From a virus (lineage: Duplodnaviria > Heunggongvirae > Uroviricota > Caudoviricetes), in IMG/VR virus record IMGVR_UViG_2713896799_000003, positions 1 through 14,665 of that record: a stretch of DNA of 14,665 bases; one strand, written 5' to 3'. Below, piece after piece: positions 7,793 through 14,665 of the stretch. How positions within the stretch are numbered: the first letter of the stretch is position 1; each line of letters starts with the position of its first letter. The position numbers and the translations under genes are program-made. Below the pieces are notes generated by a model. That model saw only the letters and a list, made by a program, of their open reading frames with translations. It searched no databases and had not been told where the DNA came from.

Positions 7793-10393
7793 TTTTGCCG
7801 ATCTGACAGCTGTTCTTACACTGGATTCAACCCGTTTTTCTGAAGAGGCTGCACGGGTAAAGAAAGAACTGGGTGAAACCAGTGACCTTGCGGATTTGAT
7901 GGCCGGGCGTGTCAGCCAGTCTTTTAAGAAACAGGCCACTGCCGTTGAACAGGGCCTGAGCCGTCAGGCGCTGGCTGCACAAAAAGCCGGGATTTCCGTC
8001 GGGCAGTATAAAGCGGCCATGCGTACCCTGCCTGCACAGTTTACGGATATCGCCACGCAGCTTGCCGGTGGTCAGAATCCCTGGCTTATTCTGCTGCAAC
8101 AGGGCGGTCAGGTGAAGGACGCCTTCGGCGGGATGCTCCCCATGTTCAGGGGGCTTGCCGGTGCGATCACCCTGCCGATGGTCGGGGTCACCTCGCTGGC
8201 GGTGGCGACAGGTGCGCTGGCGTATGCCTGGTACCAGGGGGATTCCACGCTTTCAGCGTTTAATAAAACCCTGGTTCTTTCCGGTAATCAGTCCGGACTG
8301 ACTGCCGATCGCATGCTGACGCTCTCCAGAGCCGGACAGGCAGCAGGGCTGACGTTTAACCAGGCGAGTGAGTCACTGGCAGCCCTGGTGAATGCCGGTG
8401 TGCGTGGTGGTGAGCAGTTTGATGCCATCAACCAGAGTGTGGCGCGTTTTGCTTCTGTATCCGGTGTGGAAGTGGACAAGGTTGCAGAGGCTTTTGGAAA
8501 GCTGACCACCGACCCGACGTCGGGACTGATGGCTATGGCGCGCCAGTTCCGTAACGTGACGGCAGAGCAGATTGCGTATGTTGCGCAGCTGCAGCGTTCG
8601 GGTGATGAGGCAGGGGCCTTACAGGCGGCGAACGATATCGCCACAAAAGGCTTTGATGAGCAGACCCGTCGCCTGAAAGAAAACATGGGGACGCTGGAAA
8701 CCTGGGCGGATAAAACCGGGAAGGCATTCAAATTGATGTGGGATGCCATCCTGGATATCGGTCGTCCTGAATCCTCAGCGGATATGCTCGCCAGTGCGCA
8801 GAAGGCATTTGATGAGGCGGATAAAAAATGGCAGTGGTACCAGAGCCGGAGTCAGCGCCGGGGAAAGACCTCCTCTTTCCGTGCCAACCTTCAGGGTGCA
8901 TGGGATGACCGTGAAAATGCCCGTCTGGGGCTGGCGGCAGCCACGCTGCAGTCGGATATGGAAAAAGCCGGTGAACTGGTGGCAAGGGACCGGGCTGAGC
9001 GTGAGGCGTCACAGCTGAAGTATACCGGAGAGGCGCAGAAGGCGTATGAGCGCCTGCTGACGCCACTGGAGAAATATACTGACCGGCAGGAAGAGCTGAA
9101 TAATGCCCTGAAAGACGGGAAAATCCTGCAGGCGGATTACAACACGCTGATGGCGGCGGCGAAAAAGGATTATGAATCGACGCTGAAAAAACCGAAGTCG
9201 TCAGGTGTCAAAGTGTCAGCCGGGGAGCGTCAGGAAGACCGGGCGCATGCAGCCCTGCTGACGCTTCAGGCAGAACTCCGGACGCTGGAGAAGCATGCCG
9301 GAGCGAATGAGAAAATCAGCCAGCAGCGCCGGGATTTGTGGAAGGCGGAGAGTCAGTTCGCGGTACTGGAGGAGGCGGCGCAACGTCGCCAGCTGTCTGT
9401 ACAGGAGAAATCCCTGCTGGCGCATAAAGACGAGACGCTGGAGTACAAACGCCAGCTGGCTGCACTTGGTGACAAGGTTACGTATCAGGGGCGCCTGAAC
9501 ACGCTGGCGCAGCAGGCGGATAAATTCGCACAGCAGCAACGGGCAAAACGAGCGGCTATTGATGCGAAAAGCCGGGGGCTGACTGACCGGCAGGCAGAAC
9601 GGGAAGCCACAGAACAGCGCCTGAAGGAACAGTATGGCGATAATCCTCTGGCGCTGAATAACGTCATGTCAGAGCAGAAAAAGACCTGGGCGGCTGAAGA
9701 CCAGCTTCGCGGGAGCTGGATGGCAGGCCTCAGGTCCGGCTGGAGCGAGTGGAAAGAGAGCGCCACGGACAGTATGTCGCAGGTAAAAAGTGCAGCCACG
9801 CAGACCTTTGACGGTATTGCACAGAATATGGCGGCGATGCTGACCGGCAGTGAACAGAACTGGCGCAGCTTCACCCGTTCCGTGCTGTCCATGATGACAG
9901 AAATTCTGCTTAAGCAGGCAATGGTGGGGATTGTCGGGAGTATCGGCAGCGCCATTGGCGGGGCTGTTGGTGGCGGCGCATCAGCATCAGGCGGTACAGC
10001 CATTCAGGCCGCTGCGGCGAAATTCCATTTTGCGACCGGGGATTTACGGGAACCGGCGGCAAATATGAGCCAGCGGGGATTGTTCACCGTGGTGAATTTG
10101 TCTTCACGAAGGAGGCAACCAGCCGGATTGGCGTGGGAAATCTCTACCGGCTGATGCGCGGCTATGCGGAAGGTGGTTATGTGGGCGGTGCCGGAAGTCC
10201 GGCGCAGATGCGGCGGGCGGAAGGCATTAATTTTAATCAGAACAATCACGTGGTGATTCAGAACGACGGTACGAATGGTCTGCCAGGTCCACAGATGATG
10301 AAGGCAGTGTATGACATGGCCCGCAAGGGTGCCCGTGATGAAATTCAGGCACAGATGCGCGATGGTGGTCTGTTCTCCGGAGGTGGACGATGA
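7782..10393 (+). pseudogene. H: Tail tape measure protein H, about 870 aa; frame broken by one missing base in a G-run at 10038-10041 (possibly technical)
   Basis: ATG 7782 lies 8 nt after AGGAGG (7768-7773) and overlaps the end of T. Frame 0 is open to 10154; up to ..KFHFATG it is lambda gpH-like, then turns nonsense (DLREPAANMSQRG...). From 10037 frame 2 reads RGFTGTGGKYEPAGIVHRGEFVFTKEATSRIGVGNLYRLMRGYAEGGYVGG...RDGGLFSGGGR to the stop at 10391-10393, overlapping the M start. Confidence 0.85.
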
Positions 10394-10718
10394 AGACCTT
10401 CCGCTGGAAAGTGAAACCCGGTATGGATGTGGCTTCGGCCCCTTCCGTAAGAAAGGTGCGCTTTGGTGATGGCTATTCCCAGCGTGCGCCTGCCGGGCTG
10501 AACGCTGACCTGAAAACGTACAGCGTGACGCTTTCTGTCTCCCGCGAGGAGGCCACGGCACTTGAGTCGTTCTGGCTGAGCACGGGGGCTGGAAATCCTT
10601 TCTGTGGACGCCGCCTTATGAGTGGCGGCAGATAAAGGTGACCTGCGCAAAATGGTCGTCGCGGGTCAGTATGCTGCGTGTTGAGTTCAGCGCAGAGTTT
10701 GAACAGGTGGTGAACTGA
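10390..10718 (+). pseudogene. M: Minor tail protein M; one single-base frame change near 10572 (possibly technical)
   Basis: N-terminus MKTFRWKVKPGMDVASAPSVRKVRFGDGYSQRAPAGLNADLKTYSVTLSV is in frame 1 up to ..ESF (10572). The rest, LAEHGGWKSFLWTPPYEWRQIKVTCAKWSSRVSMLRVEFSAEFEQVVN, is in frame 0 with stop at 10716-10718. The composite is about 109 aa, like lambda gpM. Confidence 0.8.
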
Positions 10719-11393
10719 TGCAGGATATCCAACAGGAACACATCTGATTCAGTCGCCCGTGGTGCTCTGGGAATCGATCTGACAGAGGTCGGTGGAGAAC
10801 GTTATTTTTTCTGTAATGAGCAGAACGAAAAAGGTGAGCCGGTCACCTGGCAGGGGCGACAGTATCAGCCGTATCCCATTCAGGGGGTTTTGAACTGAAT
10901 GGCAAAGGCACCAGTACGCGCCCCACGCTGACGGTTTCTAACCTGTACGGTATGGTCACCGGGATGGCGGAAGATCTGCAGAGTCTGGTCGGCGGAACGG
11001 TGGTCCGGCGTAAGGTCTACGCCCGTTTTCTGGATGCGGTGAACTTCGTCAACGGAAACAGTGACGCCGATCCGGAGCAGGAGGTGATCAGCCGCTGGCG
11101 CATCGAGCAGTGCAGCGAACTGAGCGCGTCAGTGCCTCTTTTGTACTGTCCACGCCGACGGAAACGGACGGCGCTGTTTTTCCGGGACGTATCATGCTGG
11201 CCAACACCTGCACCTGGACCTATCGCGGCGATGAGAGTGCGGTTATCACGGTCCGGCGGTCGCGGATGAATATGACCAGCCAACGTCCGATATCACGAAG
11301 GATAAATGCAGCAAATGCCTGAGCGGTTGTAAGTTCCGCAATAACGTCGGCAACTTTGGCGGCTTCCTTTCCATTAACAAACTTTCGCAGTAA
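10718..11393 (+). pseudogene. L: Minor tail protein L; at least 5 frame changes (possibly technical)
   Basis: ATG 10718 overlaps the M stop (TGATG). MQDIQQEH hits a stop at 10745. The gpL-like sequence continues in successive frames: ..PVVLWE (frame 1), IDLTEVGGERYFFCNEQNEKGEPVTWQGRQYQPYPIQG (frame 0), GFELNGKGTSTRPTLTVSNLYGMVTGMAEDLQSLVGGTVVRRKVYARFLDAVNFVNGNSDADPEQEVISRWRIEQCSELSA (frame 2), VSASFVLSTPTETDGAVFPGRIMLANTCTWTYRGDE (frame 1), and a tail ending ..KCLSGCKFRNNVGNFGGFLSINKLSQ at the stop 11391-11393 (frame 0). Confidence 0.8.
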
Positions 11394-11398
11394 ATCCC

Positions 11399-12137
11399 AT
11401 GACACAGACAGAATCAGCGATTCTGGCGCACGCCCGGCGGTGTGCGCCTGCGGAATCGTGCGGCTTCGTGGTGAGAACGCCGGAGGGAGACAGGTATCTT
11501 CCCTGCGTGAATATCTCCGGTGAGCCGGAGGCGTATTTCCGGATGTCGCCGGAGGACTGGCTGCGGGCAGAAATGCAGGGTGAGATTGTGGCGCTGGTCC
11601 ACAGCCACCCCGGTGGCTGCCCTGGCTGAGTGAGGCCGACAGGCGGCTGCAGGTGCAGAGTGATTTGCCGTGGTGGCTGGTCTGCCGGGGGGCGATTCAC
11701 AAGTTCCGCTGTGTGCCGCATCTTACCGGGCGGCGCTTTGAGCACGGGGTGACGGACTGTTACACGCTGTTCCGGGATGCTTATCATCTGGCGGGGATTG
11801 AGATGCCGGATTTTCATCGCGGGGATGACTGGTGGCGTAACGGCCAGAATCTCTATCTGGATAATCTGGAGGCAACGGGTTTTTAGGTGCCGTGTCAGCG
11901 GCGCAGCCGGGCGATGTGCTGCTGTGCTGTTTTGGTTCATCGGTGCCGAATCATGCCGCCATTTACTGTGGTGACGGCGAGCTGCTGCACCATATTCCTG
12001 AACAACTGAGCAAACGAGAGAGGTATACCGACAAATGGCAGCGACGCACACACTCCCTCTGGCGTCACCGGGCATGGCACGCATCTGCCTTTACGGGGAT
12101 TTACAACGATTTGGCCGCCGCATCGACCTTCGTGTGA
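11399..12137 (+). pseudogene. K: Tail tip assembly protein K; two frame disruptions (possibly technical)
   Basis: MTQTESAILAHARRCAPAESCGFVV...VALVHSHPGG is in frame 2 to about 11613. QVQSDLPWWLVCRG...DNLEATG is in frame 1 to the stop at 11884-11886. SAAQPGDVLLCCFGSSVPNHAAIYCGDGELLHHIPEQLSKRERYTDKWQRRTHSLWRHRAW is in frame 0 to 12137. The composite is collinear with lambda gpK. Confidence 0.8.
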
Positions 12138-12705
12138 AAACGGGGGCCGAAGCCATCCGGGCGCTGGCCACACAGCTCCCGGCGTTTCGTCAGAAACTGA
12201 GCGACGGCTGGTATCAGGTACGGATTGCCGGGCGGGACGTCAGCACGTCCGGGTTAACGGCGCAGTTACATGAGACTCTGCCTGATGGCGCTGTGATTCA
12301 TATTGTTCCCAGAGTCGCCGGGGCCAAGTCAGGTGGCGTATTCCAGATTGTCCTGGGGGCTGCCGCCATTGCCGGATCATTCTTTACTGCCGGAGCCACC
12401 CTTGCAGCATGGGGGGCAGCCATTGGGGCCGGTGGTATGACCGGTATCCTGTTTTCTCTCGGTGCCAGTATGGTACTTGGTGGTGTGGCTCAGATGCTGG
12501 CACCGAAAGCCAGAACTCCCCGTACACAGACAACGGATAACGGTAAGCAGAACACCTATTTCTCCTCACTGGATAACATGGTTGCCCAGGGCAATGTTCT
12601 GCCTGTTCTGTACGGTGAAATGCGCGTGGGGTCGCGGGGTGCTTTCTCAGGAGATCAGCACGGCAGACGGGGGACGGTGGTCAGGTTGTGGTGATTGGTC
12701 GCTGA
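12035..12705 (+). pseudogene. I: Tail tip assembly protein I; two +1 frame changes in G-runs near the 3' end (possibly technical)
   Basis: MAATHTLPLASPGMARICLYGDLQRFGRRIDLRVKTGAEAIRALATQLPAFRQKLSDGWYQVRIAG... is lambda gpI-like and overlaps the K 3' end as in lambda. Frame 2 runs to ..EMRVGSR (about 12637), frame 0 reads VLSQEISTAD (12639-12668), and frame 1 reads GDGGQVVVIGR with stop at 12703-12705. Confidence 0.8.
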
Positions 12706-12723
12706 TGCAAAATGTTTTATGTG

Positions 12724-12744
12724 AAACCGCCTGCGGGCGGTTTT
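12724..12744 (+). other. GC-rich hairpin plus T-tract between I and J (possible attenuator or RNA stability element)
   Basis: AAACCGCC-TGCG-GGCGGTTT inverted repeat (12724-12743) followed by TTTTGTCGTTT, about 20 nt upstream of the J ATG. Confidence 0.3.
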
Positions 12745-12765
12745 GTCGTTTATGGAGCGTGAGGA

Positions 12766-14665
12766 ATGGGTAAAGGAAGCAGTAAGGGGCATACCCCGCG
12801 TGAAGCGAAGGACAACCTGAAGTCCACGCAGTTGCTGAGTGTGATCGATGCCATCAGCGAAGGGCCGATTGAAGGTCCGGTGGATGGATTAAAAAGCGTG
12901 CTGCTGAACAGTACGCCGGTGCTGGACACTGAGGGGAATACCAACATCTCCGGTGTCACGGTGGTGTTCCGGGCAGGTGAGCAGGAGCAGGCACCGCCGG
13001 AGGGATTTGAATCCTCCGGCTCCGAGACGGTGCTGGGTACGGAAGTGAAATACGACACGCCGATCACCCGGACCATCACGTCTGCAAACATCGACCGTTG
13101 CGCTTTACCTTCGGTGTGCAGGCACTGGTGGAAACCACCTCAAAGGGGGACCGGAATCCGTCGGAAGTCCGCCTGCTGGTTCAGATCAGCGTAACGGTGG
13201 CTGGGTGACGGAAAAAGACATCACCATTAAGGGCAAAACCACCTCGCAGTATCTGGCCTCGGTGGGTGTGGTAACCTGCCGCCGCGCCCGTTCAACATCC
13301 GGATGCGCAGGATGACGCCGGACAGCACCACAGACCAGCTGCAGAACAAAACGCTCTGGTCGTCATACACCGAAATCATCGATGTGAAACAGTGCTACCC
13401 GAACACGGCACTGGTCGGCGTGCAGGTGGATTCGGAGCAGTTCGGGCAGCAGGTGAGTCGTAATTATCATCTTCGCGGGCGCATTCTGCAGGTGCCGTCG
13501 AAATTATAACCCGCAGACGCGGCAATACAGCGGTATCTGGGACGGAACGTTTAAACCGGCATACAGCAACAACATGGCCTGGTGTCTGTGGGATATGCTG
13601 ACCCATCCGCGCTACGGCATGGGGAAACGTCTTGGTGCGGCGGATGTGGATAAATGGGCGCTGTATGTCATCGGCCAGAATTGCGACCAGTCGGTGCCGG
13701 ACGGCTTTGGCGGCACGGAGCCGCGCATCACCTGTAATGCTTACCTGACCACACAGCGTAAGGCGTGGGATGTGCTCAGTGATTTCTGCTCGGCGATGCG
13801 CTGTATGCCGGTATGGAACGGGCAGACGCTGACGTTCGTGCAGGACCGACCGTCGGATAAGGTGTGGACCTATAACCGCAGTAATGTGGTGATGCCGGAT
13901 GATGGCGCGCCGTTCCGCTACAGCTTCAGCGCCCTGAAGGACCGCCATAATGCCGTTGAGGTGAACTGGATTGACCCGGATAACGGCTGGGAGACGGCAA
14001 CAGAGCTTGTGGAGGACACGCAGGCCATTGCCCGTTACGGTCGTAACGTCACGAAGATGGATGCCTTTGGCTGTACCAGCCGGGGGCAGGCGCACCGCGC
14101 CGGGCTGTGGCTGATTAAAACGGAACTGCTGGAAACGCAGACCGTGGACTTCAGCGTGGGTGCCGAAGGGCTTCGCCATGTACCGGGCGATGTCATTGAA
14201 ATCTGCGATGATGACTATGCCGGTATCAGCACCGGTGGTCGTGTGCTGGCGGTGAACAGCCAGACCCGGACGCTGACGCTCGACCGTGAAATCACGCTGC
14301 CATCCTCCGGCACCACGCTGATAAGCCTGGTTGACGGAAATGGCAATCCGGTCAGCGTGGAGGTTCAGTCCGTCACCGACGGCATGAAGGTGAAAGTGAG
14401 CCGTGTTCCTGACGGCGTTGCGAATACAGCGTGTGGGGGCTGAAGCTGCCGACGTGCGCCAGCGCCTGTTCCGCTGCGTGAGTATCCGTGAGAACGACGA
14501 CGGCACGTATGCCATCACTGCCGTGCAGCATGTACCGGAAAAAGAAGCCATCGTGGATAACGGGGCGCACTTTGACGGCGACCAGAGCGGCACGGTGAAT
14601 GGTGTCACCGCCAGCGGTGCAGCACCTGACCGCGAAGTCACCGCAGACAGCGGGGAATATCAGGT
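12766..14665 (+). pseudogene. J: Tail tip / host specificity protein J, 5' portion (continues beyond window); at least 7 frame disruptions (possibly technical)
   Basis: MGKGSSKGHTPREAKDNLKSTQLLSVIDAISEGPIEGPVDGLKSVLLNSTPVLDTEGNTNISGVTVVFRAGEQEQ... matches the lambda gpJ N-terminus. gpJ-like sequence continues in shifting frames: RFTFGVQALVETTSKGDRNPSEVRLLVQI (frame 0 from about 13095), NGGWVTEKDITIKGKTTSQYLAS (frame 2), MRRMTPDSTTDQLQNKTLWSSYTEIIDVKQCYPNTALVGVQVDSEQFG (frame 1), then MAWCLWDMLTHPRYGMGKRLGAADVDKW...VKVSRVPDGVA (frame 2, 13574-14443), with further shifts to the window end. Confidence 0.85.

Follow-up and report, generated by a model that had tools for sequence, protein, structure and literature searches.

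Six frameshifts that interrupt lambda-type tail genes M and L of an Escherichia coli prophage contig are very probably consensus errors of an unpolished long-read assembly

How two neighbouring tail genes of a lambda-type prophage come to be interrupted six times in succession, each time by a -1 change of the coding frame, is a question whose answer depends on whether the breaks are mutations, recoding signals or errors in the deposited sequence. The genes concerned, homologues of lambda gpM and gpL, lie in a window of 14,665 bp (the whole stretch of DNA analysed here), which is the entire contig LFZJ01000008.1 (GCA_001264215.1) and to which locus L007 is identical. The match to L007 came from an exact look-up of the Z-like protein. 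LFZJ00000000 is the draft assembly of IH57218, an O2:H27 E. coli and Shiga-toxigenic/enterotoxigenic hybrid. The ORF map of the window displays a lambda-type head/tail cluster with an intact middle and both ends shredded. The breaks in M and L are very probably residual consensus errors of an unpolished long-read assembly, not mutations or recoding, and the strain itself most likely carries both genes whole, M with 109 aa and L with 232 aa. The positions of the features discussed are collected in Table 1.

Table 1. Genes, frame-changing sites and flanks in the 14,665-bp window.
Feature	Position	Strand	Description
5' error flank	273..987	+	10 indels (9 deletions, 1 insertion), 0 substitutions; all private against 8 alleles
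Error-free core	1000..10000	+	9,001 bases with neither substitution nor indel; L005 and L006 match at 100% identity
3' error flank	10038..14633	+	21-35 indel events by gap scoring; H, M, L, K, I and J broken
M, lambda tail-tip gpM homologue	10390..10718	+	109 aa if intact; one break, at 10570
Site 1 (M)	10568..10571	+	One T lost at 10570, TTT -> TT; frame 1 -> 3, -1
L, lambda tail-tip gpL homologue	10718..11393	+	232 aa if intact; five breaks
Site 2 (L)	10737..10760	+	16 bases lost at 10738 and 3 in frame at 10758; frame 2 -> 1, net -1
Site 3 (L)	10770..10773	+	One A lost at 10772, AAA -> AA, GGGAAATC -> GGGAATC; frame 1 -> 3, -1; private
Site 4 (L)	10883..10889	+	GAGT lost at 10886, CAGGGGAGTGGTTTT -> CAGGGGGTTTT; frame 3 -> 2, -1; private
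Site 5 (L)	11126..11129	+	One base lost at 11128, GCGC[A/G]GTCAG -> GCGCGTCAG; frame 2 -> 1, -1; private
Site 6 (L)	11233..11234	+	GA gained, GATGAGTGC -> GATGAGAGTGC; +2 = -1; frame 1 -> 3

The six frame changes placed in M and L by the original prediction were all recovered when the window was aligned with six intact alleles, and again in frameshift-aware tblastn searches that used lambda gpM, lambda gpL and their closest intact homologues, each lying within 0-3 bases of where it had been put. Their description as single-base losses holds for only three of the six, the sizes being -1, -16 (with an in-frame -3), -1, -4, -1 and +2, and the supposed shortening of G6 to G5 at 10883-10887 proved wrong, the actual change there being GGGGAGTGG to GGGGG.

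In M, residues 1-61 of lambda gpM are matched by tblastn in frame 1 and residues 62-109 in frame 3. The Pfam profile PF05939 (Phage_min_tail, cut-off 39) likewise recognises two fragments, at 10390-10569 and 10572-10715, with 67.6 and 53.6 bits, which follow each other in order along the profile (1-58 and 61-108 of its 108 positions). Instead of a single ORF of about 109 aa, the deposited sequence thus holds one that is split at 10570, in the expected placement between H and L. The missing T is found in 8/8 comparison alleles (L001-L006, L011 and L012), and apart from it M is identical to that of L005, the prophage copy of GCA_036679865.1 that serves as a reference together with L006 (CP055941.1), the two genomes being unrelated. 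The split of the ORF is attributed to sequence error. Against lambda gpM itself, the C-terminal fragment is 98% identical and the N-terminal match, at 83% (residues 1-71), extends beyond the break.

L begins with an ATG that overlaps the TGA of M (ATGA), and a walk along the gene from 10718 passes through frames 2, 1, 3, 2, 1 and 3 (blast frames). Lambda gpL is found by tblastn as four fragments in frames 3, 2, 1 and 3, each 97-100% identical at the amino-acid level, and PF05100 (Phage_tail_L, cut-off 25) as four fragments of 44-126 bits, colinear on profile positions 1-34, 37-116, 119-153 and 154-206 of 206. A single ORF of about 232 aa is replaced by five frame changes and a garbling of residues 8-25. 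At site 2 a total of 19 bases (16 + 3) is lost, or 20 with site 3, within a garbled stretch of about 50 bases that can be explained, under gap-friendly scoring, as six small deletions from an L005-type allele with 0 substitutions. The GA gained at site 6 is absent from 8/8 comparison alleles. The garbled residues (window 10737-10760; L005 15622-15670) coincide with a natural hypervariable patch of gpL, the remainder of which is nearly invariant; at least two allele classes occur there among intact prophages, a lambda-type ETLNECTRAEQSAS and an L005-type ETHHETTRLTQSAQ. Gene order (H-M-L-K-I-J) and the ATGA overlap of M and L are as in lambda, from which the window differs in its six frame breaks and in the loss of about 19 bases toward the 5' end of L. 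Among intact alleles the nearest are the prophage copies L005 and L006, not lambda. M and L are ordinary members of the gpM and gpL families.

Whether the broken forms occur anywhere else was addressed by several comparisons. Window positions 10100-11700 are 92-96% identical to the H-M-L-K region of lambda-like phages and prophages, in which the matching stretch is about 24 bases longer, and all coding indels are private to the contig, being absent from 8/8 comparison alleles. When positions 10700-10800 were searched for in 5,426 complete E. coli genomes, all matches of full length spanned 121 bases, not 101, and the short form of the start of L occurred in 0/3,898 E. coli genome records with a full-length match there. 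Megablast and blastn searches of the same 5,426 genomes with M/L and with the start of L returned only longer, intact versions, and an exact 30-mer over the 16-base junction was not found in a search of one genome per species. The two longest products of the frameshifted ORFs, looked up by exact sequence, matched no gene on record. The absence of the frameshifted versions elsewhere argues against inherited mutations, though it is weak evidence alone, since fragments of pseudogenes frequently go unannotated.

Natural variation in these genes has another composition. In pairwise comparisons across 4.8 kb of this region, five intact alleles differ by 40-375 substitutions and no frame-breaking indel, their indels (0-4 per pair) being one of 5 bases between genes and in-frame ones of 12, 9 and 3 bases; paired 4-base gaps in two comparisons with L004 are taken to be alignment-end artefacts. 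The 5-base gap (ATTTT) at 11399 was considered as a seventh error and rejected, as it is intergenic and common to the lambda-type alleles L001 and L012, and it is left out of the 21 indel events counted below. The L-K spacer (11394-11399) lacks ATTTT relative to the closest prophages, as in lambda-type alleles, which is a genuine allelic difference, and downstream of it the window follows alleles other than L005, pointing to a mosaic tail-tip module. Of 54 substitutions that separate the 3' flank from L005, 44 are alleles of other intact prophages, and for that reason a reading of these substitutions as decay was rejected. What is private to the 3' flank amounts to 21 indel events against 10 substitutions, about 7 of the latter beside indels. 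Indels at twice the number of substitutions, or at 10:0 as in the 5' flank, are not what natural divergence or decay yields in these genes.

The breaks in M and L are part of a pattern that covers the whole contig. The core comprises the genes for the portal, a protease-capsid fusion, a decoration protein, a Gifsy-2-like protein, Z, U, V, G, T and most of H, and by tblastn all proteins from portal residue 12 through H residue 753 are 100% identical to those of the closest intact prophage; the indels nearest to it lie at 987 on the 5' side and at 10038 on the 3' side. The fusion gene of ClpP-like protease and major capsid protein lies at 2448-4427. Identity of the core to the prophages of GCA_036679865.1 and CP055941.1 is complete, and GCA_025988865.1 is identical up to about 8000; such identity across genomes indicates that the same lambdoid prophage circulates in unrelated strains. 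Three contigs of about 11 kb from three other genomes (L008, L009 and L010) carry the same prophage core and all stop inside H, their ends marking the start of sequence common to other prophages, near the onset of the 3' errors of the window. Copies of the K-I-J region number 3 per genome in the median and as many as 15.

In the 5' flank, indels interrupt the terminase large subunit (273, 414, 429 and 480) and, at 782, a small W-like gene, while those at 925-987 hit codons 1-11 of the portal gene; because these last indels break its start, the portal is called from an internal ATG at 1034, with 474 aa instead of 500. Six apparent substitutions at 928-941 were resolved as a G deletion (GGGG -> GGG) and an A insertion (AAA -> AAAA), both in homopolymers. 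In the 3' flank, the tape-measure gene H is truncated by a change of G5 to G4 at 10038, with a stop at 10154, and another 14 indel events fall in K, I and J; none of the broken genes at 10038 and 11617-14633 (H, K, I and J) is called in the deposited annotation. All 30-45 indel events are confined to the flanks, which make up 38% of the contig, with 0 in 1000-10000 (P=3e-13 under a uniform model). Errors in the flanks occur at a rate of 0.5-1%, mostly deletions with almost no substitutions, the ratio of deletions to insertions being 26:4, or 38:7 with gap-friendly scoring. Single-base deletions of the 5' flank lie inside runs of 2-4 identical bases in 8/8 cases; over the contig 16/28 fall in runs of at least two identical bases against a background of 46% (P=0.16, not significant), and homopolymer enrichment, clear in the 5' flank and non-significant overall, was dropped as an argument. 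Error density does not rise steadily toward the contig tips, 1-272 and 13502-14420 being clean. The errors, found in the flanks only, track the geometry of the contig and not the function of its genes.

The uniform direction of the shifts had been put forward as characteristic of a systematic, deletion-biased sequencing error. The error process as such gains support from the platform, the flank-only location, the indel-only 5' flank and the private nature of the indels. The shared direction, on the other hand, is not diagnostic of error, since natural bacterial pseudogenes show deletions in excess as well and the run follows the deletion excess of the contig. The run reaches beyond M and L to nine consecutive -1 shifts when H at 10038 and K at 11617 and 11886 are included, and 22/27 (81%) of the frame-changing indels contig-wide belong to the -1 class. 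Given this excess, six in a row has a probability of P=0.29 (P=0.03 at 50:50), and its significance in its own right was rejected. The shifts in M and L share one direction because the error process is deletion-rich throughout the contig.

IH57218 was sequenced on a PacBio RS with P4/C2 chemistry as continuous long reads, which were corrected by HGAP pre-assembly followed by PacBioToCA and assembled with Celera Assembler 7.0 (BOGART) into 17 contigs (PMC4551483). The terms "Quiver", "polish" and "resequencing" have 0 occurrences each in the text of PMC4551483, an absence of words that is not proof of an absence of polishing. An indel-prone platform and a pipeline with no polishing described are in keeping with a long-read consensus artefact. 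For the sister strain IH53473, treated with the same pipeline, a "frame shift" in estIa is listed in Table 1 of the same report (PMC4551483); as this strain did not produce STIa toxin, its frameshift may be genuine, but it deserves a check given the error pattern of the window. In the sister assemblies LFZH and LFZI, which come from the same pipeline, small contigs and the ends of contigs call for equal caution.

A mechanism for such an artefact can be outlined. The core would have been covered by several corrected reads, and the flanks probably rest on one or very few, leaving a residual error of about 0.5-1%. The flanks lie in the terminase and in H-M-L-K-I-J, which would be common to several lambdoid prophages per genome, and it is in multi-copy regions of this kind that repeat-aware assemblers would be expected to end contigs. 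During correction the flanks were possibly mixed with reads from sister prophages, and these may account for the garbled, allele-variable start of L and for the multi-base events. Several points count against an artefact, among them the non-significant overall homopolymer enrichment and the lack of a steady rise in error density toward the contig tips. Raw errors of PacBio continuous long reads are insertion-rich, so that the deletion excess must arise at the correction or consensus stage, and the events of -16, -4 and +2 are untypical of single-base miscalls. The prevalence of indels over substitutions (5' 10:0; 3' 21:10 private) is as expected of an artefact, and the deletion excess of the contig agrees with reports on long-read assemblies, in which false deletions dominate the indel errors and fragment genes (PMC12007338).

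Rival accounts have to be weighed against this body of evidence. M and L could be real pseudogenes of a decaying lambdoid prophage, with deletion-biased mutations in the terminase and tail-tip genes and a middle that was kept, or was recently restored through recombination with an intact prophage. STEC-type genomes are rich in lambdoid prophages that are often defective, the deletion excess of natural pseudogenes mentioned above would fit, some events are multi-base, and known alleles alternate in mosaic fashion along the 3' flank, so recombination does happen in the region. Natural substitutions outnumber indels by about 10:1, however, and under that ratio the 10 indels and 0 substitutions of the 5' flank have a probability of about 4e-11; moreover, the coding indels are common to none of the 8 alleles or of the genomes searched, and the damage halts abruptly at the core, for which two unrelated genomes show 100% identity, the damaged zones being the two ends of a small contig for which no polishing is reported. 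Decay is therefore considered very unlikely. It is slightly less likely still that the indels are real and stem from an indel-only, deletion-biased process in the flanks shared with sister prophages, such as recombination or repair slippage between paralogous prophages, which left the unique core pristine. That M and L are expressed through serial programmed -1 ribosomal frameshifts is hardly credible: all shifts go one way and a genuine lambda-type -1 site exists in G-T at 7337-7343, yet M and L are each a single ORF in lambda and in 8/8 prophage alleles, and the window gains or loses bases exactly at the shifts. No slippery heptamer conserved in relatives was seen on reading the sites, the GGGTTTT at 10885-10891 exists only through the loss of GAGT, and hardly any product would be expected after six shifts within 660 bases.

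A separate matter is how an artefact would have come about. Reads of sister prophages may have piled on the seed reads, the resulting chimeric consensus dropping bases where the copies differ. The flanks do start where multi-copy prophage sequence starts (three short contigs end in H), the worst stretch, 10737-10760, is the most divergent natural segment of L, and the alleles that support the 44/54 substitutions of the 3' flank shared with other prophages shift along the sequence. Against this, the 5' flank has indels only, without allele mixing, most single-base deletions lie where all comparison alleles agree, and the mosaic could equally be the true sequence of the prophage. Mixing of paralogues as the main route is hence possible, if rather doubtful. 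With residual consensus error as the preferred reading, the frame breaks have little biological meaning and a practical value: H, M, L, K, I and J, together with the W-like gene, the terminase and the start of the portal gene, are not to be counted as pseudogenes in this record, the prophage should not be called defective from these breaks, and scans for recoding or pseudogenes should first check whether breaks cluster at the ends of unpolished long-read contigs.

Among known systems, the programmed -1 frameshift of lambda G-T also entails a -1 change within the tail gene cluster. It depends on a slippery sequence, whereas the M/L shifts consist of missing or extra bases relative to intact homologues, with no conserved slippery sequence. 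In the window, the heptamer G GGA AAG lies at 7337-7343 in the zero frame of G (6930-7361), 18 bases 5' of the G stop, and the -1 frame past it runs into T (7388-7792). From these motifs, the programmed G-T frameshift appears to be conserved and to be the window's sole -1 shift of biological origin. A second comparison is offered by cryptic lambdoid prophages in decay, such as Rac, Qin and DLP12 of E. coli K-12, as they too have lambda-type structural genes interrupted by frameshifts in a bacterial chromosome. In genuine relics, however, substitutions, large deletions and IS insertions extend over the element and are common to related strains, whereas the contig has private small indels at its ends only. 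The closest likeness is with false pseudogenes in PacBio and ONT assemblies, which have in common with the window gene-fragmenting frameshifts, indels far in excess of substitutions, a majority of deletions and frequent short homopolymers (PMC12007338). The window departs from typical cases in that its errors are found only in two flanks beside a perfect core and include a few multi-base events. The breaks in M and L belong to this well-known class, the false pseudogenes of unpolished long-read assemblies.
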